Of a stretch of 64,000 bases of DNA, positions 11,883 to 46,972 are shown piece after piece (position 1 is the first letter of the stretch; every line of letters starts with the position of its first letter). Source of the DNA: Fidelibacterota bacterium (GTDB lineage Bacteria > Fidelibacterota > Marinisomatia > Marinisomatales > UBA1611); NCBI GenBank assembly GCA_016784605.1, contig JADHUI010000001.1, forward strand, positions 27,543-91,542, given 5' to 3'. A model generated the notes under the pieces. The model worked only from the letters and a program-made list of their open reading frames with translations. It did no database searches and was not told where the DNA came from. The position numbers were made by a program, and so were the translations under genes.

Positions 11883-11885
11883 GCA

Positions 11886-19601: not shown

Positions 19602-19615
19602 AAAGATAATCTATT

Positions 19616-20068: not shown

Positions 20069-20082
20069 AAATATCAAAATAA

Positions 20083-25925: not shown

Positions 25926-28900
25926 ATGAAACAATTATTTCGCCCATCAATCATTTTTTTAATTTTAACCACATTAACCCAGTTAGCTGCGCAAGTAGTT
26001 TATCCTGGCGAAGTGGATATAACGGGCACAGAGGAAGTTGTTTTTGATTATACAACAGACGCATGCTCTGAAGATGATATCCCTGATACGCCCGCACGAT
26101 TTTTTAGAGATGCAAATGGACAAATTCAAATGCTTGCGGTACATTATGTTAATTACAGATCGATCGGGTCAGACTTTGATAATTTAACACGAGACTGCAG
26201 TGCGCCAGTATTTGACTCAGACCATAACAGCAACCCAAGCACTTTTAATAACAACGAATGGTTGTCTAATTCATATACCCTTGACGGAAATACTATTTAT
26301 TCAATTGTTCATAATGAATACACACCAGACACCGGAAATGATTATTGGTATAATACTTTAACGTTTGCTACATCTACAGATGCGGGACAATCTTACACTC
26401 AAGCCGCATCACCCGACCATTATTTGGCGGGAACTCCTTACGAACTAGATACAAGCAATATACTCGGTATTTTTGGGGGAAGCTCACCGGTGTATAATGC
26501 GAATGATGGCTATTATTACGCGATGGTTCATTTGGAAGCCTATGGGTTACAAGATTGGGGAGCGGGCTTAATTCGTACTCAAGACTTAAGCAACCCAGAT
26601 AATTGGCGCGGGTGGGACGGTGAAGGTTTTAATGTAGAGTTTAAAAATCCCTATCATGATGTTATTTCGGATCCAGCAGATCATATTCTTGCGCCAGTTT
26701 CAAAAAATAAAATCGCAAAAATGTGCGGCAGCTTAACGTATAATACTTATTTTGAAAAATATATGGTAGTGGAATATGGCGAGTTTTTTGATCCACCATC
26801 TGGGCAAGCAAAATATGGATTCTTTTATTCGTTATCCGAAGATTTGATTAACTGGAGTCACCCAGTAATGATGTATGAAAGTCCGATTCAAACTTGGTGG
26901 GACGTAGGCGGTGTATTTTATCCAAATATTGTTGATCATACAGATACTACGCGAAATTTTGAACGTCCCGGAAGAGAGTGTTATCTCTATTTTACGAAAT
27001 GGAATTCCGGAACATATGACAGGGATTTGGTTCGAGTTCCAATTCGATTTAATAAAAAAGATATTTCAACAATTACAGTAAATAGCGTAGGAGATGATGG
27101 CGCAAACCATGCTTATATCGGAGATGCATCCACTGGAACTACAATTGCAAACGGCGAAGATGAAATCACCTTAAGGTCCGCCATTGAAACAATTAAAGCC
27201 TCTCCAGATACAGGCGCTACATTTACAATTAATTTTAATCTTCCCGGCGATGGCCCACACACCATTTCTCCGGGCTCCAGTTACCCAACATTAACAGGTT
27301 CAATGATTATTGATGGATTCTCTCAAGCCGGAGCCGTTGCAAATGCTAACAGTCTTGCTAACGGAAATAATGCGACGGTGCAAATTGAGATAGACGGAAG
27401 TAGCGCTGGGACTGACGTAAATGCGTTTGTGCTTGATGGAGCATCTTTTGCCATTAAAGGATTATCTATATATGGGTTTGATGCTGGGATTTTTATTGAG
27501 AATGGAAGTTCATCCAGCATTGAAGGTTGTTTTTTAGGATTTAATGCTCTCGGAAATCGTATTGCTGATGAGATGGGTGTAACAATTTTTAATACAGACA
27601 GTATAACAATTGGTGGAACGTCCGCTGCATCCCAAAATGTAATATCGGGTAATGTTATAATAACAGAAACGGGAGCAGAGAACAATGTAGTTTCTGGTAA
27701 TTATATTGGCGCATCGCCAGATGGAGCCACATCAATTAGTAGCGGGATGGTTATTGTTGATAATGGAGCATCGTTTAATACAATAAATTCAAATTTGATT
27801 TCCGGGTCTAGCTATAGTATTCACATTATTAATAGTAGCCTAAACACAATTCAGCAAAATATCACCGGAACAAACTCTACAGGTTTAACGGCCATTGCAC
27901 AAGGGACCATTGTTTTAACTGATAATGCAAGTCTAAACACAATTGATGATAATTTAATATCAGGGACAGGGAATGGTATTGAAATAAATCAAGACTCATA
28001 TCAAAACACAATTACTAACAATTTGATTGGCACAGATGCTAGTGGCACATCAGGCTTAAATGCAGGTTTATACGGAATTTTAGTTCAAACAGGGGCCCAC
28101 GACAATCAGATTGGAACGGTTAATAATGGAAATATAATTGGAGGGCTCACCGAGGTTGGGATTGGCTTAAATGGGGTAGATAATAATGTACTACAAGCGA
28201 ATTATGTCGGGACGAATCCTACTGGTGATAATATTTCAATTGCCACAGAAGGCATTTGGGTTGGCGGTGACTCTGAAGGGAATGTTATCGGCGGAACTTC
28301 TGCTGGAGAAGGAAATATTATAACCAATAATGGCGGTTCTGGGATAAGCCTATCTGGATTAACCGGACAAGGGAACGCTTTTCTTGGTAATGCAATTTAT
28401 AATAACGGACTTTCAGGTATTGGAGATATGACAGAAATTGATGTCCCCAGACCCGATATTGTAATAGCAATGAGTCAGAATACTACGCTTGATATTATTG
28501 GAAATATATCTGGCGAATCGAACTCAACGTATCGAATAGAGCTATTTAATAATTCAGAATGTGACGCATCGGGATCTGGTGAAGGAGAAACTTTTCTTGG
28601 GTTTATCGATGTGACCACAGATGCAAGCGGCATTGGCTCTATCAACGAAACGATTAATGCGAGCGTTGTGTCTGGTGATATTGTTACCGCAACGGCGACA
28701 GGAGAAAATAACAGTACATCTGCCTTCTCAGACTGTGTTGATGTTTTTAATAATGTTGATGCTCCCACAATGACTTTATCTGGGTCAACTTTTTCATTTG
28801 ATTTTCCATCATTTATTCAACCCATAGCTTCTGCAGATATAGTTGTAACAAATTCGGGCGCTTATGAGTTAGAATGGGAAGGAAGTTCAAACGCAGATTG

Positions 28901-31900
28901 GCTGACATTGAGCCCAAACATGGGAACAACATCAGCGGGCGCTGAATCAGAAATAGGATTAAATGTTGACTTATCGGATTCTTCCGTTGGTACGTATTCA
29001 GCTTTAATTACACTTAATTCTAATGACTATCTATTACCATCACAATCAATCTCTATGACTATTCATTATGGTACGGGCGGCCCGACAAACATTTCACATT
29101 CACCAGATACCGTTTTTGTAGATGTTTCTGAAGGTCCAGATACACCCGCGTCATTTTTTATGCTCAACATTGGGAATGAAGCTGTTGATTGGACCGCAGG
29201 GTTTACTGGTATTAATTGGGTTAATAGCGTAACACCTAATAGCGGCTCCACATCTCCTGGAGATTCCGTCGAAATATTTTTTAATGTTCGCCCCGCTAAT
29301 TTGCAACCCGGTGAAAATTCTGGTCTTGTCTGGGTAAGTTTAAACCCCGAATTAACGCAAGTCATGGAAGTACCAGTCATGGCAACATTACTCGTACCTT
29401 CAATATCTGTCTATCCAGAATCAATTGAAGAAGACTTTGAGCCAGTAGCGTCAGACCCAACGCTTTCTTTTCAAATAATGAATACAGGTGACGCAAATTT
29501 AATATGGACAGTTGATGATTTTATTGGGAACAATTGGACGTACTCTTTCAACCCATCTTCAGGCGCAACGCCCCCAGGAGACTCTACAACGATTTCATTT
29601 AACGTGAGAATTAACAGTCTTGATGAAGGGTTAAATACGGGCATTATTCCTATTTCATCAAACGACCAAAGCGCATCAACTCTTCAAATCCCTGTTACTA
29701 TAAATTATACATCTAACTCAGCTCCAAACCCAGAGCTAACGATTGATTCACCTTTAAATAATGCTACTTTTTTCTCATCAGATGTGAATATACATTTTTC
29801 TGCACAAAACTTTAATATTGGCGCAGAATCTGACTCAACAGATGGGCACCTTCATTACCAGTTAAATAACAATGATCCTGAAATGCATTATAGTGAAAAC
29901 GCGGTTCAATTATCTGGGCTTTCGCTTGGTGAACAAACAGTCATTTTATGGTTGGTAGATCATAACCATAATTCATTAGAGCCTCATGTAGCAGACACTG
30001 TTTTATTTACAATTGAAGAAGCGGACGAACTTTATAATCCTTATGATGACGTATCTTATGATTTAATATTATTGGAGTCAATTTCTGGAGACAATATTAA
30101 TGGTTCAAATAATTTCTTAAATAGAATGCCTGAAGATGCTATTATGGTTTACGAGACGAATGAGGGTAGGTTTGGGAAATTACAAATTGGTCATTATGGA
30201 GAAACGTTAACATTGGCTTGGAGCACATACGATGATTCTGGTCAAATCTATTCATCGGGAGAATCTCTCGTTGTGAGTGATGGGGTAGCTGTCGATTTAG
30301 ATGAAGGAGGCATAACAACAGACGAAAGCGCACAAGATTTCTCATGGGATGTAGTTAATGCAATTGATCGGTGGTTCAATGTTGAAAATTCAGCGCAATT
30401 TGGGTTATATGGGTATTGGGGTATTACTCGACAAATGGTGCAAAACCAATCTGGAAATTTATCAAATGCTAATATAGCCGCTGTAGATGAAGGTGAAAAT
30501 AATTTAGAAGATGGTCAGGTTTTGCTTTATCGAACAAATCAAAACAGGTACGGAAAACTTCAGGTTGAAGAATATGGACCCGCATTGCGGATTCGGTGGT
30601 GGACATATAACAATCAAGGCAATATACACTCTATGGGAGACAGTCTTGTTATTGCAAGTAATGCATCTTGCGATTTAGAGATGGGACAACAAACCCCAAA
30701 CAACTCCCCTCATCGTGATTTTTACTGGGAGCAAGTATCCCCAGGTGAAATGTATTTAGTGCCTCGTAATGCGTCGCAATTTGGCGTTTATTCACCAAAT
30801 CATGCTCCAACAGCAAACGATCAGTATTTTGAAACCAATGAGGGAACTTCTGTAGAAATTGTTTTGAATGCAGTCGATGTAGATGGGGATGATTTAATGT
30901 ATGATATTAACGAATGGCCACAGTACGGCTCCCTGTCAGGCACACCTCCTTCTTTTGTGTATGCCCCCAACCCAGAATTCATCGGTGGAGACCAGTTTGT
31001 TTATACAGTTACAGATGGAGAGCTATCTAGTTCGGCAACGGTTTATATTTCAGTTATAGATGGCGGTGGTAATAATAGCGCTCCAGAATTCAATAATTTT
31101 TCGGATTTAGATATTGTTGAAGATTCAGAAGAAAACAGTGTTTATGAAATTTCTGCTAACGATCTTGATGGCGATATGTTAACATTTTCATTGAGCTCTA
31201 ACAACGAATCTGTTTCGTGGGCTGATGAAGGGCAAACAAATACATCTCAGCTTTTTAGATTAGTCGTTTCACCTAATTGGTATGGTAGCGCTGTTTTTAC
31301 GGCCATTGTTTCTGATGGGGAATTAAATGATACATTAAATTTTAATGTAAACGTAACCCCTGTAAACGATTCGCCTACGGCCTCTGATTTAACAATTGAA
31401 ACACAGGAAGATATACCTGTCGCATTTGATTTTATTGGAAACGACATTGATGGTGATGAACTAACATTCATCATTGTCAGCAACCCACAGCATGGCACAC
31501 TTAATGATGGTGTTTATTCGCCCGCAGAAAATTATTTTGGAGAAGACACTTTTCAATATGCTTCACATGATGGAACCGCCAACTCTGAACCGGCAACTGT
31601 GATAATTACTGTCACCCCAATAAATGATTCACCAATAGTTAATGATTTAGAAATTACTTGTTTAGAAGATAATTCTGTTGAAATCAGCTTAGATGGAACC
31701 GATGTTGATGGAGACGATTTAACTTTTAGTGTTTTAACGCCACCAGGACATGGCACATTTAATAATGGTGTTTATTCGCCCGCAGAAAATTATTTTGGAG
31801 AAGATACTTTTACATTTACAGCTTCCGATGGAATTGAACTTTCCAATGAAGGTGTTGTGACAATTGAGGTTGAATCAATCAATGATGCGCCAGAGCCATT

Positions 31901-32537
31901 TGAGTTGCTGTCTCCCGTAAACACTCATACTATCTCAATTTCCAACGCCACCTTTAATGATACTCTTCGATTTAAATGGACAACATCTCACGATATTGAT
32001 AATGATGAAATAACATATGATTTTGTCGGTGAAGGTTCATTGGCGTTATTAGAAAACAGTCTCATAGCAGATAGCGATACAAGTGTGTGGATTTTATATT
32101 CAACGCTTGCCAATTATGTTGATTCATTGAGTGTTATTCAAGGCGATTGGTCTGCCATAGCGATAGATTTACAAGATTCAACCTTAGCTACGAATGGTCC
32201 TTTTTCTTTAACAATTGATTTAAATGAACTTTCTATTGATGATATAAATGAAATTCCGAGTTTATTTGCATTACACCAAAATTATCCAAACCCATTTAAC
32301 CCAACGACAACGCTTCGATATGATTTACCAGAAGACACCCATGTTCAAATTGTTATTTACGATATTATGGGGCAACAAGTTAAAACGCTGATCAATGAAG
32401 AGCAAAATGCTGGCTTTAAAGCAGTTGTTTGGGATGCGACAAATCATATTGGGCAGCCAGCGAGTGCGGGGATGTACCTATATCATATAAGTGCGGGAGG
32501 ATTCAACAAAACGATAAAAATGGTTTTATTGAAATAG
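25926..32537 (+). CDS. Giant secreted T9SS cargo protein (2203 aa). Domains: N-terminal Asp-box-containing domain, right-handed parallel beta-helix (PbH1) repeats, Ig-like domains, two copies of an unknown ~100-aa domain, cadherin-like/VCBS-type repeats, and a T9SS CTD
   Basis: Signal peptide MKQLFRPSIIFLILTTLTQLAAQ. One Asp-box (STDAGQSY). NxIxGNxI-type beta-helix repeats at about 27500-28400. Repeats of INDSP...DVDGDDLTF...HGT...GVYSPAENYFGEDTF (258-bp period around 31350-31870). CTD FALHQNYPNPFNPTTTLRYDL...GMYLYHISAGGFNKTIKMVLLK. Confidence 0.85.
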   Translation: MKQLFRPSIIFLILTTLTQLAAQVVYPGEVDITGTEEVVFDYTTDACSEDDIPDTPARFFRDANGQIQMLAVHYVNYRSIGSDFDNLTRDCSAPVFDSDHNSNPSTFNNNEWLSNSYTLDGNTIYSIVHNEYTPDTGNDYWYNTLTFATSTDAGQSYTQAASPDHYLAGTPYELDTSNILGIFGGSSPVYNANDGYYYAMVHLEAYGLQDWGAGLIRTQDLSNPDNWRGWDGEGFNVEFKNPYHDVISDPADHILAPVSKNKIAKMCGSLTYNTYFEKYMVVEYGEFFDPPSGQAKYGFFYSLSEDLINWSHPVMMYESPIQTWWDVGGVFYPNIVDHTDTTRNFERPGRECYLYFTKWNSGTYDRDLVRVPIRFNKKDISTITVNSVGDDGANHAYIGDASTGTTIANGEDEITLRSAIETIKASPDTGATFTINFNLPGDGPHTISPGSSYPTLTGSMIIDGFSQAGAVANANSLANGNNATVQIEIDGSSAGTDVNAFVLDGASFAIKGLSIYGFDAGIFIENGSSSSIEGCFLGFNALGNRIADEMGVTIFNTDSITIGGTSAASQNVISGNVIITETGAENNVVSGNYIGASPDGATSISSGMVIVDNGASFNTINSNLISGSSYSIHIINSSLNTIQQNITGTNSTGLTAIAQGTIVLTDNASLNTIDDNLISGTGNGIEINQDSYQNTITNNLIGTDASGTSGLNAGLYGILVQTGAHDNQIGTVNNGNIIGGLTEVGIGLNGVDNNVLQANYVGTNPTGDNISIATEGIWVGGDSEGNVIGGTSAGEGNIITNNGGSGISLSGLTGQGNAFLGNAIYNNGLSGIGDMTEIDVPRPDIVIAMSQNTTLDIIGNISGESNSTYRIELFNNSECDASGSGEGETFLGFIDVTTDASGIGSINETINASVVSGDIVTATATGENNSTSAFSDCVDVFNNVDAPTMTLSGSTFSFDFPSFIQPIASADIVVTNSGAYELEWEGSSNADWLTLSPNMGTTSAGAESEIGLNVDLSDSSVGTYSALITLNSNDYLLPSQSISMTIHYGTGGPTNISHSPDTVFVDVSEGPDTPASFFMLNIGNEAVDWTAGFTGINWVNSVTPNSGSTSPGDSVEIFFNVRPANLQPGENSGLVWVSLNPELTQVMEVPVMATLLVPSISVYPESIEEDFEPVASDPTLSFQIMNTGDANLIWTVDDFIGNNWTYSFNPSSGATPPGDSTTISFNVRINSLDEGLNTGIIPISSNDQSASTLQIPVTINYTSNSAPNPELTIDSPLNNATFFSSDVNIHFSAQNFNIGAESDSTDGHLHYQLNNNDPEMHYSENAVQLSGLSLGEQTVILWLVDHNHNSLEPHVADTVLFTIEEADELYNPYDDVSYDLILLESISGDNINGSNNFLNRMPEDAIMVYETNEGRFGKLQIGHYGETLTLAWSTYDDSGQIYSSGESLVVSDGVAVDLDEGGITTDESAQDFSWDVVNAIDRWFNVENSAQFGLYGYWGITRQMVQNQSGNLSNANIAAVDEGENNLEDGQVLLYRTNQNRYGKLQVEEYGPALRIRWWTYNNQGNIHSMGDSLVIASNASCDLEMGQQTPNNSPHRDFYWEQVSPGEMYLVPRNASQFGVYSPNHAPTANDQYFETNEGTSVEIVLNAVDVDGDDLMYDINEWPQYGSLSGTPPSFVYAPNPEFIGGDQFVYTVTDGELSSSATVYISVIDGGGNNSAPEFNNFSDLDIVEDSEENSVYEISANDLDGDMLTFSLSSNNESVSWADEGQTNTSQLFRLVVSPNWYGSAVFTAIVSDGELNDTLNFNVNVTPVNDSPTASDLTIETQEDIPVAFDFIGNDIDGDELTFIIVSNPQHGTLNDGVYSPAENYFGEDTFQYASHDGTANSEPATVIITVTPINDSPIVNDLEITCLEDNSVEISLDGTDVDGDDLTFSVLTPPGHGTFNNGVYSPAENYFGEDTFTFTASDGIELSNEGVVTIEVESINDAPEPFELLSPVNTHTISISNATFNDTLRFKWTTSHDIDNDEITYDFVGEGSLALLENSLIADSDTSVWILYSTLANYVDSLSVIQGDWSAIAIDLQDSTLATNGPFSLTIDLNELSIDDINEIPSLFALHQNYPNPFNPTTTLRYDLPEDTHVQIVIYDIMGQQVKTLINEEQNAGFKAVVWDATNHIGQPASAGMYLYHISAGGFNKTIKMVLLK

Positions 32538-32614
32538 ACTATTTAATACATTATTAATAGAGAAAAGGCATTCTTGACGTTTGCCTTTTCTCTAAATGAA
32601 AGCGCTATAAAAAG
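32271..32614 (+). repeat. 345-bp direct repeat, copy 1: CTD-coding 3' end of giant gene 1 plus downstream hairpin (partner at 39588-39932)
   Basis: Manual alignment to 39588-39932 gives 8 substitutions and one 1-nt indel over ~345 bp (about 97-98% identity). The two copies are offset by 7317 bp. Confidence 0.95.
32559..32593 (+). terminator. Conserved hairpin downstream of giant gene 1 (putative terminator)
   Basis: Perfect 12-bp stem agagaaaaggca / tgccttttctct with an 11-nt loop, 22 bp after the stop. An identical copy lies at 39876-39910. There is no clean trailing U-run (the T-rich tract is inside the 3' arm). Confidence 0.55.
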
Positions 32615-32622
32615 CCACTACT

Positions 32623-32667
32623 CAGCCCTTCTTTGGGAATATTAATGCATCTAGAAATTCGGCATAG
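32623..32667 (+). repeat. ppc 3'-end repeat, copy B (orphan fragment between the two giant genes)
   Basis: cagcccttctttgggaatattaatgcatctagaaattcggcatag would read QPFFGNINASRNSA* in frame. From ttt (32632) onward, the 36 bp match ppc with a single substitution (gct to gca) and keep a TAG stop. No ORF leads into it. Confidence 0.9.
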
Positions 32668-32755
32668 AGTCTAATTTCGATTTATCTTTAATAAGATATG
32701 ATAGGCTGTAGCACTGTCCAAAATAAATTAGATTTTTCATATTTTAGATAAATCC

Positions 32756-32800
32756 ACCTGACCGCCCTGGCGATAACCTGTGCTGTTAGTCAGGTTTTTT
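32756..32800 (+). terminator. Orphan intrinsic-terminator-like hairpin inside the ORF-free spacer
   Basis: acctgac ... gtcaggt outer stem enclosing a small cgc/gcg inner stem, followed directly by TTTTTT (32795-32800). It lies ~90 bp after ppc remnant B, and no annotated gene ends here. Confidence 0.45.
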
Positions 32801-33166
32801 ATCATATTTCAAAAACAAACCCCCAATGAGCGCGATAGAGGCTCTATAAGTGGAAGTTTGAGTCAATATTACCAAGAGATGATTTTATGGACCCACCCCT
32901 AAACAAACTCGGGATTTACATTTCGCCCAAACTTTGATTTCCCCCTTTTCTTTAAACCCCAACTACACCTTCCCCGCAACGAGGAAGACTTTAATGTAAT
33001 AGGAAGAAAACAGCCAAAAACATCCGAATATTTTCCCCTGTAATAGGGGAAATACAAAGGGGTCATTATAATATTTATTACACTTTTACAAAACGTTTTG
33101 GACAGACGTGAACAGGTCCATTAAAACTTTTATAGAATTTGTGTTTTTATTATTAATTAAGTAAAA

Positions 33167-33206
33167 TAGACAGTTAGACAGTTAGACAGTTAGACAGTTA
33201 GACAGT
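33167..33206 (+). repeat. Perfect tandem repeat (TAGACAGT)x5 upstream of giant gene 2
   Basis: Five uninterrupted 8-bp units at 33167-33206, followed by TTTTTT. The repeat ends 64 bp before ATG 33270. Confidence 0.95.
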
Positions 33207-33269
33207 TTTTTACTTGTTAGGGCGAGGAAAAACTGCTCAATTTACAAACAAACGAGAAGAGAGAATCCC

Positions 33270-36200
33270 ATGAAATACGTACAGTATTGTCTTATATCCA
33301 TATTTTTTATCCAAGTTGCTTTTTCAGCAAGTGTTAAAGATAACCCCAGAAAAAAACAACAGAGCAGAAAAACCGAAATTCCTGTAGAAAGGGTAAGAAA
33401 AAATCACTCTGAGGATATAGATGCGCCAAAAGTTAAACCTACCCGAGAAGATGATCGTGTATCAAAAGTACAACAAATTAAAGATGGCGTTATTTCGATC
33501 CAGGATGTATTTACAATAGAGACGCCCCAGACGCGTTCTGTAACAAACTTTACCGAATATACTGTTTGCTCTGTTGGGTGCGACTATGATGATGTTATGA
33601 CCGCAATTAATAGTGTTCCAAGTTTCTCCACCATTTTCATTTCTGAGCCGGGCACATATTATGTGTCTGATATACAATTAGAAGAAAAATCTATTTGGAT
33701 TCGCGGATTAAGCCCAGAAGAAACAATTTTAACAGGAGAAAACCCAGACGGACTAGACTCGAATCTTGTTTATTTTGAAAAATTAGATTATGCTGATTGG
33801 ACTCTTGAAGAAAACCAAGACAGAATTGCAGACAGTGTTTGGATTACCCGCGGCGACAATCAACCCATCTTTAATGCTGCTGTGGAAGCGTATAATGATA
33901 CAGACACCGATCTTACGCCTACAAATACATTATGGGCGCAGGGCAGGACGGCGGATGTGGACTCATCTGATTATGAAACTTTCGCACCCATGACAGGCTG
34001 GTGCCCGCCGTGTATTTTAGGCCAAACATTATCTCTAAAGCTCCCCGGTGCGGGTGAAGATAGTTCGGATGTTTTTTATGACCTGGTTATTACACAATGG
34101 ACACAAAATGGTGCAGGCGGAGGATTCGCTTATTATAGAGGAGAGCCAGGAGTATCTCTACCACTCTCTGCTACAATGATTTCCCTTTCCGATTCGAGTG
34201 AAAATGATACAATTTCATATTTACAACTTTCAGATTTATCTATTGTTGATGGGTCGGGTTCGAATGGAAGCCCGGGTGGTATTTTAATTGATGAAAATAC
34301 GTATGATTCAACCACGGTTGTATTTGAAAATGTACACGGCACAAATCATAGCGGCGGGTTTTTAAGATCTTATTCTAACAACACTGCCATTTATATTAAT
34401 AATTCCGAATTTTTTAATAATAACTCATCTAATGATGGGGGTGTTATTTATTTAGATTTTGGAGATTTAAATATTAATAATTCCGAATTTTTTAATAATA
34501 ACTCATCTAATGATGGGGGTGTTAGTTATTTAGATTTTGGAGATTTAAATATTAATAATTCCGAATTTTCCAATAACACAACTAATGGCGATGGAGGTGT
34601 GTTTTACATAGATGATGGAAATTATAATATTAATAATTCCGAATTTTCCAACAATTCATCTAATGATGATGGAGGTGTTATATATCATTATGACGCCGAA
34701 GGCATGATTCTGAATAGTGCTTTTACACACAACTCATCGGGAGATGACGGGGGTGTTATAAATAATGAGAGTGGTGACTTATACATCGGGAACTCTCATT
34801 TCTCTGAAAATGAAAGTTCATATGGGGGTGCTATATATATGGATTACGGCGACGATTTTGTCACTTTTAACACTTCATTTGAAAATAATATCGCAACATC
34901 GTCTGGAGGCGCCATTTACATTGAAGAAAGCGCAGATGGGTACTTTTATCAAACACATTTTCACGAAAATATGTCGGGAAATGAAGGTGGCGCTTTTTAT
35001 ATTGAAAATTATGAAGATGATTTTGATATTTCGGTAGAATTTCATTCTTCATCTTTTGTAGAAAACATAGCCGAAGGAGACGGTGGTGCCATTTTTTCTT
35101 ATGATGATTATGATGGGCGTATTAAAATTTATTCATCTGTGTTTGATGGCAATTCATCGGAAAGCGATGGAGGCGCAATCTATATTGACGATGATGGCGA
35201 ACTTTGGATAGAAAATTCTTCATTTGTTAGGAATTCAGCCGGGGATGATGGTGGCGCTATTTATAATGATGATGCAGATTCTCCTGGCGTTATAATGATT
35301 AACACAACAATCGCTAATAATAGCGCATCAGACGAAGGTGGTGCCATTATAAATGATGATTATTTGTTTTTATATAACTGTACAGTAGCATTTAATGATG
35401 CAGGATATGATTATGGAGGTATTGACGATGTAGACGATATGAGTTCCACAGTTATTGCTCAAAACACTGTTACGGGAGACGATTATTCCTATCCGGATGT
35501 AGACTATGCTTACATTAGCGAACGCAATATTATTGGAAATATTGGAGAAGGGTCAATTTATATATACAATGATGTGTATGGCGACTCCTGGATTGGAAAC
35601 CCCGATTCGTTGGGGACTATCGATTCAGTTGCAATAGCGCACGGCGTGGTTGTTTATGATACACCAATTAATGCTCAACTTGCGTTTGTTAATGATGAAC
35701 CATTACCCTACATGATTCCTTATCCCGGTAGCTTAGCCATTGATAATGGAATAGACTGGTATAATTGGGATGATGAATATGTAACGGTTAATTATGATAT
35801 GCTAGGAAGACCGCGAAGCTGGCCTTATAATTCAGATATTGGAGCAATTGAACGCACCCCAGGAGATCCCCACGAAGACCAAATCGCACCTGGAACAATT
35901 GATGATTTAGCAGGGGCGCCATCTATTGAAGGTGGTATCCAACTATCATGGACTGCTGTTGGTTCTGATGGAAATATAGGAACAGTGGCGGAATATATGG
36001 TTTATTACAGTGCGAATACATTTGAAGATCCTAGCGAATCTACTGTAATGGGAATCAACCCCGGAATCAACCCAAGTCAGTCAGGCACAAATGAATCTTT
36101 TCTACTAGGTGGGCTTGATTATGGATCGGCTTATTACATCCGCATCATTACATTTGATGAAATTGGTCAACCTTCGGACTTGTCCAATGAAATTGCTGTT

Positions 36201-39200
36201 GAAACATTAAACGCGCCGAGCGTGGCTGTTTCTACAACAAGTGCATCGATTACTCTTCCTGCAGAATCAGAAGGTACGCGTCAATTAACCCTAGGGAACG
36301 ACGGTCAAAGTCTTTTAGAGTGGAGCGCCACAATTCTTACGGAAGATACTTCATCTGTAAGAAGCTCAAGCCCCGTATTTGGCACGGGAACGCTTAGTGA
36401 CCTTGAAAAAAGCGCATCAGATTATGTGAACCACCCTAGGCCTGAAAACTTATTTTCAGATGAGTCTTTTCCTCTCGACCCACACATGCAAAGTGTGTTA
36501 TCTAGTCGAATAAATGCCAACCCTTTAGAAAACATTCTTTCAATGTTTGAAGAAAAACATCAAACCATTATTGATCTAGTGCCAAATCCGTGGGTTATTG
36601 AAGATGGCGTAACCGGAGATAATATTAACGACGGTGGGGACGATATGTACGATGGGGGAAATTATTTAAGTACAGATAACGAACAAAATCCACTTGCATA
36701 TTCAGATAGTGTTATTATTGCCAGTAGTCATTTAGGAGAAACAGGTCAGTATTTTACACGAAAATATGATGAATTGTTTGTTTTCGCTGCCGATCTAGAT
36801 TCTGTAAGCGATTTTTATATTACGGGGAATCTCGGCGCAGATGGAAGTGGAAGTGTTGACGGTATTATTGTTGAAGAGAGCGGGTATACCGGGTTTGTTA
36901 AGCGTGTATATAATGCTGGCGATCCTTCTATTAATCATATGGTCATTATTCAAAATACAGAAGGAGCCAGTCATGATTTTTCTACAGATACAAATAATGA
37001 CTATCACCATATTGGCGGTTTAATCAATGTTACACAACTATATTATATATTGTATGCCAGTAGCGGCGGGGCGCTGGTTGACGATGAAACAACATTAAGT
37101 ATTATGAGCGCTATGCTTGATATAATTGACCCAACATGGTTGCATGTTTCAGAAAATCAAGGCGAAATCCTTCCCGGCGAAACACAATTAATCGAGATAT
37201 TGTTTAATACAACAGAGTTAGCGGATACAAGCTTAGCAGGATTAATTACCCTAACGACTAATGACCCCAATGTAGCAGAAATACCTATCGATGTAAGTAT
37301 GGTTGTTTCTAGTGAAAACCTATCTCCGGTATTGCATACAGCTCAATTATCAGACGCGATAGAAGATGAACCTTATTTATTCCAGCTTGTAGGGGAAGAC
37401 CCTAATGGTGACACTATTCACTATACATTGGTTGATGGACCCAGCTGGATGTCAATATCAGAAAGTGGCGAAGTTACAGGTATGCCGACAAATGAAAACG
37501 TGAGTGATTCGGACACACTTTCAGTTAATTTAAACGACGGAACAGTGGATATATCTTTTGGTATGACCGTGACTGTGATTAATAGCAATGATAGTCCTTT
37601 TGTTCTAAATGGGTTTGAACCCGTTGTTGTTAATGAAGATTCAGAGCCAATAACGATTGATCTTTCTCAAATATTTAGTGATGATGATATGAATATTGAG
37701 TTAGACTCGTTAATCTACCTAGCGGAAGGTTTTATGACTTTTCGAAAGGAAAATAACGCAGATTGGACCCTTGAAGAAAACCAGGATCGCGTAAATGATG
37801 CAGTGTGGATAACAAGAAAAAACAATCAATCTATATTCAATATTATGCGAGAAGATGGTTATTCTCAAGCAGATGGTAGCCCTCAAGGCACGGAATGGTC
37901 CCTTGGTTATGCGAGTCAATCAAACGAACTTATGTTTGAGCCATTTATATCGGCAGTAAGTAATTCTCCGCAAAGCTCAATCGGAAAACCGCTAGTCATG
38001 CATACTGTGGATGATAACCATTATTATAATATGATGATTCATCAATGGACGGGCGGAAATAATGGCGGAGGACTTGCTTGGACGCGCTCTAGTGTAGAAA
38101 ATAATGATACGCCTATTGCAACTCCTGAAATAAATGGATCAAACCTAACCATTTATTTCCATCCAAACGCTTTCGGAGAAACTGAATTGGTTATTCTTGC
38201 CATAGATGAATCGGGAGAAACTGTTGCTGATTCTTTAAGCATAATGATAAACCCAGTAAACGATTTACCTGGAGATGTGGCATTGCTACACCCAGCGGAT
38301 AATTCCACCATTTCGATTCTTAACCCAACATTATCTTGGGAAGAACCAATCGATTTCGAAAATGGCGAAACATCTGGAAGTAGCAATGATCATTTGGTTA
38401 AAAATACTCAAACTCAATCTAATTCACGTTCCATTGCAAGTTATAATGTGTATGTAGGTACTGACACTGCATTAACTGCAGAAGATTTTTTAGAGAATGT
38501 GGCAATAAATTCATATACCATCTCCAGCGATTTGGTAGATGATGCTACATATTTTTGGATGGTAGAAGCGGTGGATGATGATGGGGGTATTTCAACTTCA
38601 GACACATGGTCGTTTACAATAAACACAGGGAACAATCCACCATCATCTTTTGAGCTTGTTTCACCTTCTCCAGAATTAGTTTTGTATTCAACGGATGTCA
38701 CTTTTGAATGGATGCCGAGTTATGATCCAGACCCAAATGACAATGTTCATTTTGCGCTTAACGTGAATTCTGATACGTTACACCTTCATTATGAAACAGA
38801 TTCAATATCGTACTTAGCGTCTCAATTCCAGGATAATAAAGTATATCATTGGTCTGTAGATGCTTATGATAATTATGGCGCGATGGTACAAAATATCGGC
38901 GGACCACGTATGTTTGTGGTAAATACCGCAAACGATAATCCATCATCCCCAGAATTAGTTGCTCCTTTAAGCGGAAGTATACAGACAAACCTTATGCCAA
39001 GCTTTTTCTGGACTCGATCACACGATATTGATCCTATGGATCATGTATCATACGAGTTAAGTTGGCAACAAATTGGAGACGCGTTAAATCCGCATATTAT
39101 AAATACGGATAGTAACGGAGTTTCCCTCGAAGAAAACCTTGAAGATAATTCATCTTTTATTTGGTCAGTAAGAGCAATGGATTTGAATAACGGCGAATCA

Positions 39201-39854
39201 TTAACGGATACGATGCATTTTTATACAGACGCATTTCCAGAACCCCCACTTGCCTTTGTGACACTTTCACCGGAGAATGAAGCAACTGGCTTAGGAACGG
39301 AAGTTGAATTTGTTTGGGCCGAATCAATTGACCCAGACCCAATTGATGACATTCATTATCAGCTTGTTTATGCTACAGATTGGCAAGATAGCAGTACATA
39401 CGTTTTCAGCGAAAACGTTCAAGATACATCCTTAATAATTTCAATGGAAAATAATACATTATATTATTGGGGAGTAATTGCTCGGGACAATGATGGGTTT
39501 ATGGTTGGAAGTAACGATAATACCCCAAACACAATGGTGATTGGTACGCTGGGGATTGATGACCAAGCGATACCAGATGCTTTTGCCTTACACCAAAATT
39601 ATCCAAACCCATTTAACCCAACGACAACGCTTCGATATGATTTACCAGAAGACACCCATGTTCAAATTGTTATTTACGATATTATGGGGCAACAGGTTAA
39701 AACACTGATCAATGAAGAGCAAAATGCTGGCTTTAAAGCAGTTGTTTGGGATGCTACAAATCATATTGGGCAGCCAGTGAGTGCAGGAATGTACTTATAT
39801 CAGATAAGTGCGGGAGGATTCAACAAAACGATAAAAATGGTTTTATTGAAATAG
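33270..39854 (+). CDS. Giant secreted T9SS cargo protein (2194 aa). Domains: Pmp-type (GGA[IV] / FxxN) beta-helix repeats, a duplicated unknown DWTLEENQDR domain, FN3/Ig-like and cadherin-like domains, and a T9SS CTD
   Basis: Signal peptide MKYVQYCLISIFFIQVAFSAS. More than 12 repeats of the form F.(E/N)N.(A/S)...(D/E)GGAIY (e.g. FENNIATSSGGAIYIEE, FVENIAEGDGGAIFSYD, FDGNSSESDGGAIYIDD), the hallmark of polymorphic-membrane-protein repeats. CTD FALHQNYPNPFNPTTTLRYDL...GMYLYQISAGGFNKTIKMVLLK. Confidence 0.85.
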   Translation: MKYVQYCLISIFFIQVAFSASVKDNPRKKQQSRKTEIPVERVRKNHSEDIDAPKVKPTREDDRVSKVQQIKDGVISIQDVFTIETPQTRSVTNFTEYTVCSVGCDYDDVMTAINSVPSFSTIFISEPGTYYVSDIQLEEKSIWIRGLSPEETILTGENPDGLDSNLVYFEKLDYADWTLEENQDRIADSVWITRGDNQPIFNAAVEAYNDTDTDLTPTNTLWAQGRTADVDSSDYETFAPMTGWCPPCILGQTLSLKLPGAGEDSSDVFYDLVITQWTQNGAGGGFAYYRGEPGVSLPLSATMISLSDSSENDTISYLQLSDLSIVDGSGSNGSPGGILIDENTYDSTTVVFENVHGTNHSGGFLRSYSNNTAIYINNSEFFNNNSSNDGGVIYLDFGDLNINNSEFFNNNSSNDGGVSYLDFGDLNINNSEFSNNTTNGDGGVFYIDDGNYNINNSEFSNNSSNDDGGVIYHYDAEGMILNSAFTHNSSGDDGGVINNESGDLYIGNSHFSENESSYGGAIYMDYGDDFVTFNTSFENNIATSSGGAIYIEESADGYFYQTHFHENMSGNEGGAFYIENYEDDFDISVEFHSSSFVENIAEGDGGAIFSYDDYDGRIKIYSSVFDGNSSESDGGAIYIDDDGELWIENSSFVRNSAGDDGGAIYNDDADSPGVIMINTTIANNSASDEGGAIINDDYLFLYNCTVAFNDAGYDYGGIDDVDDMSSTVIAQNTVTGDDYSYPDVDYAYISERNIIGNIGEGSIYIYNDVYGDSWIGNPDSLGTIDSVAIAHGVVVYDTPINAQLAFVNDEPLPYMIPYPGSLAIDNGIDWYNWDDEYVTVNYDMLGRPRSWPYNSDIGAIERTPGDPHEDQIAPGTIDDLAGAPSIEGGIQLSWTAVGSDGNIGTVAEYMVYYSANTFEDPSESTVMGINPGINPSQSGTNESFLLGGLDYGSAYYIRIITFDEIGQPSDLSNEIAVETLNAPSVAVSTTSASITLPAESEGTRQLTLGNDGQSLLEWSATILTEDTSSVRSSSPVFGTGTLSDLEKSASDYVNHPRPENLFSDESFPLDPHMQSVLSSRINANPLENILSMFEEKHQTIIDLVPNPWVIEDGVTGDNINDGGDDMYDGGNYLSTDNEQNPLAYSDSVIIASSHLGETGQYFTRKYDELFVFAADLDSVSDFYITGNLGADGSGSVDGIIVEESGYTGFVKRVYNAGDPSINHMVIIQNTEGASHDFSTDTNNDYHHIGGLINVTQLYYILYASSGGALVDDETTLSIMSAMLDIIDPTWLHVSENQGEILPGETQLIEILFNTTELADTSLAGLITLTTNDPNVAEIPIDVSMVVSSENLSPVLHTAQLSDAIEDEPYLFQLVGEDPNGDTIHYTLVDGPSWMSISESGEVTGMPTNENVSDSDTLSVNLNDGTVDISFGMTVTVINSNDSPFVLNGFEPVVVNEDSEPITIDLSQIFSDDDMNIELDSLIYLAEGFMTFRKENNADWTLEENQDRVNDAVWITRKNNQSIFNIMREDGYSQADGSPQGTEWSLGYASQSNELMFEPFISAVSNSPQSSIGKPLVMHTVDDNHYYNMMIHQWTGGNNGGGLAWTRSSVENNDTPIATPEINGSNLTIYFHPNAFGETELVILAIDESGETVADSLSIMINPVNDLPGDVALLHPADNSTISILNPTLSWEEPIDFENGETSGSSNDHLVKNTQTQSNSRSIASYNVYVGTDTALTAEDFLENVAINSYTISSDLVDDATYFWMVEAVDDDGGISTSDTWSFTINTGNNPPSSFELVSPSPELVLYSTDVTFEWMPSYDPDPNDNVHFALNVNSDTLHLHYETDSISYLASQFQDNKVYHWSVDAYDNYGAMVQNIGGPRMFVVNTANDNPSSPELVAPLSGSIQTNLMPSFFWTRSHDIDPMDHVSYELSWQQIGDALNPHIINTDSNGVSLEENLEDNSSFIWSVRAMDLNNGESLTDTMHFYTDAFPEPPLAFVTLSPENEATGLGTEVEFVWAESIDPDPIDDIHYQLVYATDWQDSSTYVFSENVQDTSLIISMENNTLYYWGVIARDNDGFMVGSNDNTPNTMVIGTLGIDDQAIPDAFALHQNYPNPFNPTTTLRYDLPEDTHVQIVIYDIMGQQVKTLINEEQNAGFKAVVWDATNHIGQPVSAGMYLYQISAGGFNKTIKMVLLK
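34395..34706 (+). repeat. Four in-frame 78-bp tandem repeats (26-aa Pmp-type units) inside giant gene 2
   Basis: Units at 34395, 34473, 34551 and 34629. Units 1 and 2 differ at one nucleotide (INNSEFFNNNSSNDGGVIYLDFGDLN versus ...GGVSYLDFGDLN). Units 3 and 4 are more diverged. Confidence 0.9.
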
Positions 39855-39932
39855 ACTATTTAATACATTATTAATAGAGAAAAGGCATTCTTGACGTTTG
39901 CCTTTTCTCTAAATGAAAGCGCTATAAAAAAG
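39588..39932 (+). repeat. 345-bp direct repeat, copy 2: CTD-coding 3' end of giant gene 2 plus downstream hairpin (partner at 32271-32614)
   Basis: See copy 1. Includes the identical hairpin at 39876-39910. Confidence 0.95.
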
Positions 39933-39940: not shown

Positions 39941-39985
39941 CGCTCCCTATTTGGGAATATTAATGCATCTAGAAATTCTGCATAA
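39941..39985 (+). repeat. ppc 3'-end repeat, copy C (orphan fragment before the dioxygenase-like gene)
   Basis: cgctccctatttgggaatattaatgcatctagaaattctgcataa encodes exactly RSLFGNINASRNSA*, like ppc. The only differences are tcg to tct, gct to gca (both synonymous) and TAG to TAA. No ORF leads into it. Confidence 0.95.
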
Positions 39986-40004: not shown

Positions 40005-40916
40005 ATGAAACGAAGAGACTTTATTAAAACAGGGATTGTAGGCACAGCGGCACTCGGTTTTACCCCAACAGCACTATTAAAAAGTCAAGACTGTCCCCTA
40101 ACTCAAAATGATATATTGGGACCCTATTGGACAGAGAACCACCCAAACAGAACTCTTTTGGCAAATGCAGATGAACCGGGAACGCGTATTTTTATTTCAG
40201 GAACAGTAAAAGCTAACGACTGTGAGACGCCCATTGAAAATGCAATTGTTGATGTATGGCATGCAAACGATAATGGCTGTTATACGATATTTATGGAATG
40301 CGATTCAGGAAACTCAGATGATGATCCTTATAATTTACGCGGTCAAATGATAACGAATGAAAATGGAGAATATGCCTTTGAAACTATTTGGCCTGGATAT
40401 TATGCCGGTCGCCCAAAACATTTTCATTATAAAATTACAACACCCAACGGCCTTGAACTTGTAACGCAATGTTATTTTGAAGGAGACGCTCAAATTGATT
40501 CACAATGGGAAGAAGACCATCAGGGGCTCATTATTCCACTAGATGAAAGCGGAAGTAACCTTTATGGTGTTTTTGATATTGTGATGGATGAGGAATTAAT
40601 CCAAGTTGGAACCCAAAACGAAAAAGCCCATCTTCTAGAAAAACCAATTTTATATCCCGCATATCCCAATCCTTTTAATAGCTCAACTCAAATAAAGTTT
40701 AATGTATCAAGGCAAGGACACATGAGTATTGGTGTCTATGATATTTCAGGGAAATGGATAACCAGTCTCATGGAAAAGCATATATCACCCGGGGCTCACA
40801 AGCTAAATTGGAACGGGAATGATATGTTAGGAAAACCTGTTTCAGCCGGGCTTTATTTAGTCATATTGAAATTTGGTGCACACACAATTTCGAAAAAAAT
40901 ATCTCTTTTGAAATAA
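40005..40916 (+). CDS. Intradiol ring-cleavage dioxygenase-like protein with a twin-arginine signal and a T9SS CTD (303 aa)
   Basis: Tat motif MKRRDFIKTGIVGTAALGF. Dioxygenase_C-like core (ISGTVKANDCETPIENAIVDVWHANDNGCY, NENGEYAFETIWPGYYAGRPKHFHYKI). C-terminal YPAYPNPFNSSTQIKFNV...GLYLVILKFGAHTISKKISLLK. Confidence 0.8.
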   Translation: MKRRDFIKTGIVGTAALGFTPTALLKSQDCPLTQNDILGPYWTENHPNRTLLANADEPGTRIFISGTVKANDCETPIENAIVDVWHANDNGCYTIFMECDSGNSDDDPYNLRGQMITNENGEYAFETIWPGYYAGRPKHFHYKITTPNGLELVTQCYFEGDAQIDSQWEEDHQGLIIPLDESGSNLYGVFDIVMDEELIQVGTQNEKAHLLEKPILYPAYPNPFNSSTQIKFNVSRQGHMSIGVYDISGKWITSLMEKHISPGAHKLNWNGNDMLGKPVSAGLYLVILKFGAHTISKKISLLK

Positions 40917-44420: not shown

Positions 44421-44567
44421 GAAAGATTGAATAATATATTTTTTGCCGATTAAAACAGAGACTTTAGTCACTATAAATAAGATGTAAGTAAAAAACACAA
44501 AGGAAGCGTTTTAATAGAGATTTAGCAACAAAATGTCTGCTGATTAATTTTTCTGAGGAGGAAAACC

Positions 44568-45824
44568 ATGAAACAATTTTATCAATATATAGGTGCGTTT
44601 ATTATAATAACGCAAATAACATTTGCTCAAGAAGCATACATGCATCTTGCCCATTCGGGCATAACGCCATCATCAACCATGACTGTTGAGCCCGGGCAAG
44701 AAATTACATTTGAATATGGTGGCGGTGGCCCCCACCCAATGACATCAGGGCAAGGAAGCACAACATCTCCCGTGCACTTTCCTACTGTTACTGTTAATTC
44801 AAGCAATCCGATTGCAACATTTTCTCTAGAAGAAGAAGGAACATATATTTTTCATTGTGGCACCAACCCAGGAAATACCAGTTTATGGGGAACCATTATT
44901 GTGGAGCCAGCTCCTATAGAAGGACCCATGGGCGACGTAGATTTAAACGGAATGTTAAACTTTACAGATATTACTTATATGATGTTTTATTTCTATGGAA
45001 TGCAGGAATTTTCGGATGAACAAATGTATGAGGCCGATGTAAGTCAAGACAGCACAGTTTCACCTTTAGATTTGTCATTATTAAAAATGGCCATCAATAC
45101 CACCATTGAACTTCCATACCCAAACATAGATGGCGTTTTAGACGGAAGCGCCACCTACGCATTAGATGTACCCACTTACTCTGATGGTGAAATTACCGTC
45201 CCTGTTTCTGTCAGCGCTTTATCAAATGTTATTTCTATTGACTTAAGCGTTGTTTTTGATAATACATCCCTAACGCTTGATCGCGTTGATTTTGAAGAAT
45301 CTTGGGATGGAGCAACCACGATAAATGTAGAAAATAATGGAAATTTAAGATTAATTGTAGCGAGCCCAGCAATTAATGAAAGCGATAATCTAATCGCAAA
45401 TTTGGTATTTACCGTAAACGAAACATCTGAAAACAACACATCGGTGACGCTCGTTTCATCACAAACAAATGAAAGTGGACTTATTGCTGAAGAATCCACA
45501 GTTGATGTGCAATTACTTGGTGTGGATAATATAATGAATATACCAACGCAATTAAACATATCAGGCGCTTTCCCGAACCCGTTTAACCCAGCAATTACAC
45601 TGCTAGTTGCTATAGCTGATGTTCGTGATATTCATTTAGAAATATTCAACACGAAAGGACAAGCAGTTAAAACATTCTCAAGTGAGAATTTTGTCAGGGG
45701 AACGAATTCTATTACATGGAACGGATTGAACAATCAAGGGCAGCAAGTTCCATCAGGTATTTATATAGTTAAAGCTTCATCAAGTCAGAACACAACAACC
45801 AAAACAATTACACTACTAAAATAA
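44568..45824 (+). CDS. Secreted T9SS cargo protein: cupredoxin-like N-domain, dockerin-like repeat pair, cohesin-like domain, CTD (418 aa)
   Basis: GAGGAGG RBS. Cupredoxin-like GTYIFHCGTNPGNTSLWGTIIVE. Dockerin-like GDVDLNGMLNFTDITYMM ... ADVSQDSTVSPLDLSLLKMAI. Cohesin-like GEITVPVSVSALSNVISIDLSVVFDNTSLTLDRVDF...LIANLVFTV. CTD SGAFPNPFNPAITLLV...GIYIVKASS..TKTITLLK. Domain calls are from motif recognition only. Confidence 0.7.
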   Translation: MKQFYQYIGAFIIITQITFAQEAYMHLAHSGITPSSTMTVEPGQEITFEYGGGGPHPMTSGQGSTTSPVHFPTVTVNSSNPIATFSLEEEGTYIFHCGTNPGNTSLWGTIIVEPAPIEGPMGDVDLNGMLNFTDITYMMFYFYGMQEFSDEQMYEADVSQDSTVSPLDLSLLKMAINTTIELPYPNIDGVLDGSATYALDVPTYSDGEITVPVSVSALSNVISIDLSVVFDNTSLTLDRVDFEESWDGATTINVENNGNLRLIVASPAINESDNLIANLVFTVNETSENNTSVTLVSSQTNESGLIAEESTVDVQLLGVDNIMNIPTQLNISGAFPNPFNPAITLLVAIADVRDIHLEIFNTKGQAVKTFSSENFVRGTNSITWNGLNNQGQQVPSGIYIVKASSSQNTTTKTITLLK

Positions 45825-45835
45825 AAGGAATCACC

Positions 45836-46972
45836 ATGAAACGTATTTTAATATTTATTCTACCGCTACTCTTTATAAGTTGTGAAAATAATAACGATGA
45901 TCAAATTTCTGATTTACAAAAACAGTTAGATGATTTAAATAGTATAATTCAAGAGTTGGAAGACAATCAAGATGCTATATTAGACGGTTATATATCTACC
46001 CCCGCAACGCTGGATATTCCAACATGGGTCACAGATTATTTAGGCGACATGCCTATTCCTGAAGATAACCCAATGACGGTTGAAGGTGTTTATTTGGGAC
46101 GAAAACTTTTTTATGATACACGCCTTTCAGATGATAGTACAAAATCATGCGCCAGCTGTCATTTACAATCTGCCGGCTTTACAGATCCAGAACAATTCAG
46201 TGAAGGTATTACCGGAGAAAGAGGCACACGAAACGCGATGCAAGTTATAAACGCCGGTTGGTTTACATCTTTTTTCTGGGATGGACGAGCCGCAACATTA
46301 GAAGACCAAGCATTGGGGCCTGTTGTAAATCCTGTTGAGTTAAATACCACTTGGCCAAAAGTTGAAGAAAAAATATCAAACGATCGCCTATATCCCGCTC
46401 TATTTAAAATGGCATTTGGGTCATACGAAATTGATTCAATGCAAATTGTAAAAGCGATTTCCCAATTTGAACGTACCTTATTATCGTTCAATTCAAGATA
46501 TGATAATTATTTTTATGGAGATTTCACAGGATTTACAGAATCAGAAACAAATGGTTTTGATATTTATTTTTCTGAAAAAGGCGACTGCATTCATTGTCAC
46601 GCCGGTCCTATTTTAACCGATAATGAATTTAGGAATAATGGCCTAGACTCAGAATTGACAGATCTTGGGCTCGCCGACGTAACAGGACTATCAACCGATG
46701 AAGGCAAATTTAAAGTACCCACTTTAAGAAATATTGAATACACCGGACCCTATATGCATGACGGTCGATTCGAAACACTCGAAGAAGTGGTTGAGCACTA
46801 TAATAGTGGCGTTCATGCTGATTCACCCAACCTTGACGATGAAATGCACAATGCTTCTGAAGGTTTAAATTTAACCAATGAAGAAAAAACAGATTTAATT
46901 AATTTCTTAAAAACGTTTTCTGAGCCAGACTTTTTAACGAATACACATTTTTCTGATCCGTTTATAGATTAA
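45836..46972 (+). CDS. Di-haem cytochrome c peroxidase (CCP/MauG family) lipoprotein (378 aa)
   Basis: Two CxxCH haem sites (CASCH, CIHCH), the conserved KVPTLRNIEYTGPYMHDGRFETLEEVVEHY block, and lipobox LLFISC. Confidence 0.9.
   Translation: MKRILIFILPLLFISCENNNDDQISDLQKQLDDLNSIIQELEDNQDAILDGYISTPATLDIPTWVTDYLGDMPIPEDNPMTVEGVYLGRKLFYDTRLSDDSTKSCASCHLQSAGFTDPEQFSEGITGERGTRNAMQVINAGWFTSFFWDGRAATLEDQALGPVVNPVELNTTWPKVEEKISNDRLYPALFKMAFGSYEIDSMQIVKAISQFERTLLSFNSRYDNYFYGDFTGFTESETNGFDIYFSEKGDCIHCHAGPILTDNEFRNNGLDSELTDLGLADVTGLSTDEGKFKVPTLRNIEYTGPYMHDGRFETLEEVVEHYNSGVHADSPNLDDEMHNASEGLNLTNEEKTDLINFLKTFSEPDFLTNTHFSDPFID

Follow-up and report, generated by a model that had tools for sequence, protein, structure and literature searches.

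We describe a strain-variable adhesin slot that lies between ppc and a dioxygenase gene in a Marinimicrobia (SAR406) population, as seen in a 64,000-nt window of DNA from a Fidelibacterota bacterium (contig JADHUI010000001.1, positions 27,543 to 91,542). Two adjacent giant genes in this slot end in nearly the same 3′ module, which comprises a type IX secretion system (T9SS) sorting domain, a stop codon and a hairpin. We propose, with a probability of roughly 0.78, that the two 3′ modules are held near-identical by ordinary homologous recombination (gene conversion) and that the same repeats are the crossover sites at which the second gene is deleted. The genes and their repeat blocks are located as follows.

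25926–32537, forward strand: giant gene 1, 2203 aa, with BACON_2, HYDIN-type Ig and Big_9/cadherin repeats and a T9SS sorting domain (Pfam)
33270–39854, forward strand: giant gene 2, 2194 aa, with Chlam_PMP repeats, fn3 and a T9SS sorting domain (Pfam)
32265–32614, forward strand: repeat block copy A, from alignment and a repeat finder, consisting of sorting-domain coding sequence (32265–32534), stop codon (32535–32537), spacer (32538–32558), hairpin (32559–32593) and tail (32594–32614); TIGR04183, 45.4 bits
39582–39932, forward strand: repeat block copy B, built like copy A, with its hairpin at 39876–39910; TIGR04183, 46.8 bits

Between positions 32271–32614 of copy A and 39588–39932 of copy B, the initial annotation of this DNA had counted eight substitutions and one 1-nt indel, and this result is reproduced by alignment, by a repeat finder and by a per-position count, all of which agree. 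The substitutions are at 32378, 32387, 32438, 32461, 32468, 32471, 32478 and 32486, the indel is in an A-run at 32609, and the direct-repeat offset from copy A to copy B is 7317 nt. Identity begins 6 nt farther left (32265/39582), with one extra substitution at 32270. The coding part of the block makes up the final 90 codons of both giant open reading frames (ORFs). As had also been claimed, and as the coordinates confirm, identity then crosses the stop codon (39852–39854 in copy B) and continues through 77 nt of shared non-coding sequence that holds a perfect 12-bp-stem hairpin. The limits of identity at 32265 and 32614 are sharp and fall within otherwise unrelated sequence. Upstream of the block the two genes show zero nucleotide similarity and only weak, domain-level protein similarity, in keeping with the earlier description of the upstream proteins as unrelated.

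Both tails pass the 23-bit cut-off of TIGR04183, the model for the T9SS type A sorting domain, and PF13860 is above its cut-off in both giant genes. PF18962 (cut-off 27) reaches the cut-off in gene 2, at 27 bits, and falls below it in gene 1, at 23 bits. By this C-terminal domain (TIGR04183) the two genes are predicted to encode T9SS type A cargo; the N-termini of both proteins (MKQLFRPSIIFLILTTLTQLAAQ; MKYVQYCLISIFFIQVAFSA) resemble signal peptides by eye. T9SS machinery genes are absent from the window. Chance is excluded as the source of the tail identity, because the 5 other sorting-domain tails that were compared from the window are just 46–61% identical to the block tail at the DNA level. 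These divergent tails also speak against a tag homogenised across the whole genome, the possibility that the initial annotation had named as fatal to its interpretation. Perfect matches to the hairpin number two in the window, against 0 expected, and the hairpin occurs once in a 541-kb contig of a sister strain. In an exhaustive HMMER search of 1.84 billion representative proteins, gene 2 was alone in exceeding 75% identity over the full length of the 94-aa domain. This search took the place of a word-indexed one with that domain, which returned only short fragments at no more than 77% identity, missed the parent proteins and could not judge tag sharing.

The divergence pattern within the block fits conversion. 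We compared the block with related loci in lineages labeled by their ppc identity to the window (89%, 85%, 78%, 77% and 70%) and in a sister strain represented by L002 (ENA, 617-kb contig) and L003 (JGI, 541-kb contig), which come from two independent metagenomes and have flanks 98.3–98.5% identical to the window. Across the 78 positions of the non-coding tail, the indel is the one difference between copies A and B, as against 14 differences between copy A and its L002 orthologue (Fisher P = 0.0006). All eight substitutions lie within 109 of the 344 nt, between stretches of 113 and 122 identical nt (simulation P = 0.0014), and six of the eight, read from the sequence, are synonymous. The block gives the impression of a centre that diverged earlier, with an arm on each side that was homogenised later. 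Compared with its orthologue in L011, a member of the 89% lineage, gene 2 drops from 90–97% identity in the 240 nt before the block to 55–75% inside it. Sorting-domain identities likewise clash with the ppc tree, being 55/90 between the window and L011, 60/90 between the window and L026 (85% lineage) and 66/90 between L011 and L026. The initial annotation had proposed either a common origin or conversion; conversion suits this pattern, and part of the resemblance may be inherited cassette frame.

The flanks of the blocks carry a further repeat that was absent from the initial annotation. Beyond the block there is a 17-nt unrelated patch, after which identity resumes for 36 nt (32632–32667/39950–39985). 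This 36-nt core has a third copy at 25633–25668, which is the true 3′ end of ppc, and the order of the locus is ppc with its core, gene 1, block, core, gene 2, block, core and the dioxygenase gene. The additional features are listed here.

23137–25668, forward strand: ppc (phosphoenolpyruvate carboxylase, 843 aa), the conserved left border; Pfam PEPcase, E = 3e-137
25633–25668, forward strand: core copy 0, the last 11 ppc codons (FGNINASRNSA) and stop, the functional original of the 36-nt repeat
25669–25925, forward strand: intergenic region 1, between ppc and gene 1
32615–32631, forward strand: patch A (CCACTACTCAGCCCTTC), a 17-nt stretch with no relation to patch B and no likeness to ppc
32632–32667, forward strand: core copy A, in which the ppc 3′ end recurs as non-coding sequence, identical to copy 0 at 35 of 36 positions
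32668–33269, forward strand: intergenic region 2, both ends of which are orthologous to the short ppc–gene 2 spacer of L011
39933–39949, forward strand: patch B (ATGTTTTTCGCTCCCTA), a degenerate continuation of ppc 3′ coding sequence, which together with the core reads ..KKDVFRSLFGNINASRNSA and stop
39950–39985, forward strand: core copy B, the displaced original ppc 3′ end, from alignment with the L013/L014 empty site
40005–40916, forward strand: dioxygenase gene, 303 aa, with its own unrelated T9SS sorting domain, the conserved right border; Pfam Dioxygenase_C and Por_Secre_tail

The source names of homologues assign the window to Candidatus Marinimicrobia/Neomarinimicrobiota. Orthologues of ppc at 70–100% identity are found in Marinimicrobia, and the C-terminus ..RSL[FY]GNINASRNSA is common to all 120 ppc homologues listed. 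Cores A and B are non-coding remnants that can still be read in frame to the stop. The empty site aligns collinearly with the remnant, the 19 nt that come after it and the start of the dioxygenase gene in the window, in L002 and in L011, and core copy B is therefore identified as the displaced original ppc end. Patch A departs from patch B at about 10 of its 17 positions, though their neighbours on either side are identical, and no other copy of patch A occurs in the window, the fetched loci or viral contigs. The first ~55 nt after the ppc stop share ~75% identity with the beginning of intergenic region 2 and with the intergenic region of L011; this stretch is a putative leader, now diverged, common to both cassettes. 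A reading of the core TGGGAATATTAATGCAT as a sigma-54 −24/−12 promoter, based on its GG-N10-GC spacing, was dropped as uninformative, since the invariant Gly and Ala codons at the C-terminus of ppc dictate both the GG and the GC.

Deletion of gene 2 through the repeats had been predicted, and an allele with one block and without gene 2 exists. In L002 and L003, ppc is followed by a gene 1 of 2201 aa, a single block, patch B, the core and the dioxygenase gene. What lies to the left of copy A is here joined to what lies to the right of copy B; the junction falls inside the repeat block, and the loss of gene 2 is thus the product expected of a crossover between the blocks. The initial annotation had also named an artefactual identity, produced by the assembly, as fatal to its interpretation, but the two-gene arrangement is real: five same-strain contigs (L001, L004, L025, L041 and L042; 99.9–100% identical) carry both genes in the same order, and for eight contigs with an identical ppc protein mostly the same neighbour genes are reported. 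In the 89% lineage (L011, L031–L037), ppc is followed by a short intergenic region, a gene 2 orthologue and the dioxygenase gene. The intergenic region of the L011 lineage matches both ends of intergenic region 2 of the window. This lineage has its own sorting domain, nearly the same hairpin and a ppc remnant before the dioxygenase gene; in L011 the remnant core differs from the strain's own ppc core at 4 of 36 positions. The 85% lineage (L026–L030, L012) carries a gene 2 orthologue whose C-terminal 900 aa show 55% identity, together with a related hairpin, and has no ppc remnant at the locus. In the 78%, 77% and 70% lineages (L043, L013 and L014, respectively), ppc is followed by 19 nt and then by the dioxygenase ATG, an empty site.

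These alleles suggest a history for the slot. Gene 2 is present in three successive lineages, with a window–L011 DNA identity of 80–85%, similar to the 87% of ppc. Gene 1 is seen only in the window strain and L002/L003; nothing more than 40% identical to it occurs outside this species, and its closest other proteins are 38–40% identical across 58% of its length. It is most parsimonious that gene 2 is the old resident and that gene 1 entered between ppc and gene 2 before the window strain split from L002/L003. By parsimony the two-copy state would be ancestral and the absence of gene 2 from L002/L003 derived, because the outgroups carry gene 2 at the locus.

From the observed anatomy, alleles, empty sites and divergence pattern, we infer a RecA-type agent of recombination and the following order of events. 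In the ancestral state, ppc would have been followed directly by the dioxygenase gene. The PMP-type gene 2 would then have entered, and the clade at 89–100% would have kept the displaced last ~57 nt of ppc beside the dioxygenase gene. The window species would next have gained the unrelated gene 1 between ppc and gene 2, leaving a copy of the last 36 nt of ppc; gene 1 has a leader on its 5′ side and a hairpin on its 3′ side, both of the kind seen with gene 2. Finally, the two 3′ modules would have swapped short tracts, and a crossover inside the module would have removed gene 2 in one sister lineage. The duplications of the ppc end are ~57 nt long for gene 2 and 36 nt for gene 1. Our preferred account of the insertions is homology-anchored recombination of incoming DNA together with unequal crossover between alleles.

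The position of the crossover in L002 can be approximated. At the eight diagnostic sites L002 reads a a a b a a b a, which provides no single coding crossover point. Its spacer agrees with that of L011 gene 2 at 16 of 22 positions (by eye) and with the window spacer at 11 of 22, and for this reason the best reading places the L002 crossover near the stop codon. Unequal crossover in its simple form, between one allele with gene 1 alone and another with gene 2 alone, was rejected, for it predicts patch B at the middle junction, where patch A is observed.

Several observations weigh against our proposal. Patch A (32615–32631) is unexplained by any simple unequal-crossover model, nor is it a neat fit to site-specific capture, and the 85% lineage carries gene 2 without a ppc remnant, which makes the number of independent insertions uncertain. 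In the coding part, copies A and B differ at 9 of 273 positions and copy A and its sister-strain orthologue at 6 of 273; because the coding paralogues are no closer than the orthologues, recent conversion is demonstrated for the flanks and the non-coding tail alone. Gene 2 is mosaic elsewhere too, with stretches that are 55–65% identical to L011. The direction of transfer is ambiguous, in that the hairpin is native to gene 2 orthologues and the sorting domain looks foreign to gene 2. Contigs otherwise the same as the window depart from it at the eight diagnostic sites alone: both genes have the copy-A variant (a,a) in L001/L004 and the copy-B variant (b,b) in L041, compared with (a,b) in the window. 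Frequent two-way conversion inside one clone may lie behind this; the contigs were rejected as proof of ongoing conversion, since bubble collapse in de Bruijn short-read assemblers gives the same picture. The hairpin is present in gene 2 orthologues of lineages that do not have gene 1, and a gene 2-type frame would therefore have been the source of at least the 3′ untranslated tail of gene 1. The resemblance of the two modules would be in part a common cassette frame and in part later conversion.

The strongest competing explanation, which we nevertheless consider unlikely, is site-specific capture. Integrase-less giant-gene cassettes with a common frame of 36-nt core, ~55-nt leader, sorting domain and hairpin would have been inserted serially at an att-like core in the ppc 3′ end by a recombinase encoded elsewhere, and the near-identity of the 3′ modules would be a legacy of the cassette family and not a product of conversion. 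An identical 29-nt core is indeed found at every junction (three exact copies, with 0 expected), the arm to the left of core copy A is unrelated, as in att sites, and both cassettes have the diverged 5′ leader and the same hairpin in common. Relatives also offer empty sites, and the same site has been used at least two times. However, no integrase, transposase or other recombinase domain was detected in the window ORFs that were scanned, among them all those of the locus and its immediate neighbours, or in the related loci and their flanks. The conservation of the core in ppc is forced by the invariant protein C-terminus, and identity between cores is not upheld everywhere, as the four mismatches between the L011 remnant and its own ppc core attest. 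Nor does the capture model sit well with the 85% lineage, in which the gene is present without a duplicated core, or with the lack of matches to the core and patch A in viral contigs. Homology-anchored illegitimate recombination, or unequal crossover between alleles, yields such duplications without a dedicated enzyme. The stronger form of this proposal, that the ppc–dioxygenase slot is a dedicated capture site where a recombinase encoded at another place in the genome inserts, stacks, swaps and excises cassettes, is more doubtful still; if true, the slot would be an integron-like system for T9SS surface proteins.

A second competing explanation is that the block is conserved by selection at the nucleotide level, because its RNA or DNA is itself functional as a terminator, as a regulatory element of the 3′ untranslated region or as a signal that localises the mRNAs of T9SS cargo. 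The hairpin, AGAGAAAAGGCA-11 nt-TGCCTTTTCTCT, provides the case for this view. It folds strongly, the 151-nt region around it folding far better than shuffled sequence (z = −3.8), and its stem is conserved across four lineages with 12–13 pairs, including two compensatory pairs (in L026). Selection on the hairpin, however, leaves the synonymous-site identity over 270 coding nt unexplained. In addition, the 21-nt spacer varies freely between strains, the gene 2 tails of L011 and L026 are 67–71% identical to the window copies in the coding part, and no Rfam family matches anywhere in the window. We regard selection of this kind as very improbable, and for the coding part and the spacer it is largely refuted.

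The hairpin may nonetheless have a role of its own. A stem-loop that follows the stop codon and shows compensatory changes is one of the features of an intrinsic (Rho-independent) terminator, and we suggest that the hairpin acts as one. It does not have the G+C-rich stem and U-tract of the consensus, and a consensus terminator scan did not report it; a U-rich run sits within its 3′ arm, and AAAUGAAAG comes after. The stem pattern matched 10 loci in JGI metagenomes, 9 of which are unrelated terminators with the same stem by chance. An exact scan for the hairpin tail found no match in the GTDB species genomes, among which this species has no representative.

Least credible is an assembly artefact, in which one tail was written twice or two strains' alleles were stitched in tandem: the eight single-nucleotide polymorphisms are assigned differently, as (a,b), (a,a) or (b,b), in otherwise identical contigs, as if assemblers struggle inside the block, and Logan contigs break exactly at the 36-nt core, but such breaks are expected from a true three-copy repeat when the graph has k=31, three different samples yielded contigs that cross the locus from ppc through gene 1 and gene 2 to the dioxygenase gene, the eight contigs with identical ppc are reported to agree mostly in their neighbours, the flanks of each copy are unique and mutually different, and the one-gene allele must belong to another strain rather than to a mis-join because it is 1.5–1.7% diverged along the whole 20 kb compared.

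Other features of the slot are described here in their own right. Within gene 2, positions 34393–34704 hold four copies of a 78-nt (26-aa) PMP-type tandem repeat with 68–99% identity. Orthologues of gene 2 within one lineage (L031–L037) range from 2187 to 2316 aa, and the length of the repeat array therefore differs among strains. In L026 the gene 2 orthologue is split into overlapping ORFs (12714–14918 and 14728–20739) by a frameshift or a sequencing error; in L027 the ORF is unbroken from 12675 to the contig end. Intergenic region 2 holds a 414-nt lineage-specific insertion (32706–33119) that is missing from the L011 spacer. The insertion has a perfect 10-bp inverted repeat at its bounds, CTGTCCAAAA/TTTTGGACAG (32714–32723, 33096–33105), and looks like a small non-autonomous mobile element, a second copy of which is absent from the window and all fetched loci. 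An 8-nt tandem repeat (TAGACAGT) lies at 33167–33207, about 65–100 nt upstream of the gene 2 start, with 5 copies in the window strain and 3 in every contig of the 89% lineage (L031–L040; L011 position 3804). It is possible that this repeat serves as a copy-number switch for gene 2 expression.

The wider window is rich in T9SS cargo. At least eight genes with a type A sorting domain occur in the 64 kb, an unusually dense set (starting at 4484, 16408, 18585, 25926, 33270, 40005, 44568 and 59202). Two adjacent cargo genes, 16408–18540 and 18585–19601, share a tail that is 79% identical between 18317–18542 and 19378–19603; their last 270 nt are 81% identical, far above the level of unlinked tails. 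From sequence comparison, this pair would represent either a duplication of greater age or a milder instance of such homogenisation. Because yidC (1009–2661, reverse strand) and dnaA (3044–4381, forward strand) are both in the window, it probably adjoins the chromosomal replication origin, and the adhesin slot is ~20–35 kb from dnaA.

L002 and L003 show a second absence, unrelated to the loss of gene 2, in which window positions 44433–46429 correspond to 14426–14432 of these contigs. A cohesin/dockerin T9SS gene (44568–45824) and the 5′ half of a MauG-type peroxidase gene (45836–46972) are missing, and the peroxidase remnant is a truncated 177-aa ORF; the sister lineage has thus lost DNA elsewhere too. 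In L044/L045, from a lineage with 69% ppc identity, a transposase helix-turn-helix fragment (11714–12058) follows ppc and the synteny differs, and the region 3′ of ppc has therefore undergone at least two kinds of rearrangement across the phylum.

The locus offers a clean natural example of cell-surface variation in uncultured marine bacteria, for which all states (empty, gene 2 alone, gene 1 alone and both) have been recovered from public metagenomes. Unrelated giant adhesin bodies that carry one export tag and one presumed terminator would form an arrangement that lets genes be homogenised, lost and perhaps swapped. There are practical consequences as well. The sorting-domain sequences of neighbouring cargo genes are non-independent phylogenetic data, and short-read assemblies may mis-phase such repeats. 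The mechanism that we favour is ordinary homologous recombination, and no new one is revealed.

Known systems resemble this locus in part. Like integron cassette arrays, it has serial gene-sized units, each with a terminal hairpin element and a short conserved core. Unlike integrons, it has no IntI-type integrase and no attI, and its units are 7 kb with long upstream regions of their own. The hairpin here is also of another kind, with a perfect 12-bp stem, compensatory changes and a terminator-like character, whereas the integron attC is imperfect and has extrahelical bases. Some genomic islands integrate at the 3′ ends of genes (tRNA, tmRNA and protein-coding targets) and are flanked by direct repeats of that end. 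The present slot shares with them a duplicated target end, a displaced original at the distal junction, an empty site in relatives and tandem occupancy, and differs in having no integrase in or near the inserts, inserts that are each approximately a single 6.6-kb gene, and unequal duplications (~57 and 36 nt). Flexible genomic islands of marine bacteria, whether of the replacement or the additive type, carry giant surface proteins. Here, too, a fixed slot between housekeeping genes holds differing large surface genes in empty, single and double states; unlike in flexible islands, each junction has the last 36–57 nt of the left flanking gene, and the residents share a recombining 3′ module.

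The nearest documented case is recombination among rgpA, kgp and hagA of Porphyromonas gingivalis, T9SS cargo genes in which C-terminal modules are common to different genes (PMC5266723). Those modules are reshuffled by homologous recombination and allelic exchange, which produces a mosaic of strains that bears no relation to genome phylogeny (PMC5266723). In both systems, T9SS-secreted surface proteins have C-terminal modules common to different genes. In P. gingivalis, a pathogen in culture, the modules are adhesin domains and the genes that share them are unlinked, whereas here the module consists of the sorting signal, the stop codon and a hairpin likely to be a terminator. It is carried by direct-neighbour genes with unrelated bodies, and is accompanied by a deletion allele, in an uncultured member of the Marinimicrobia.

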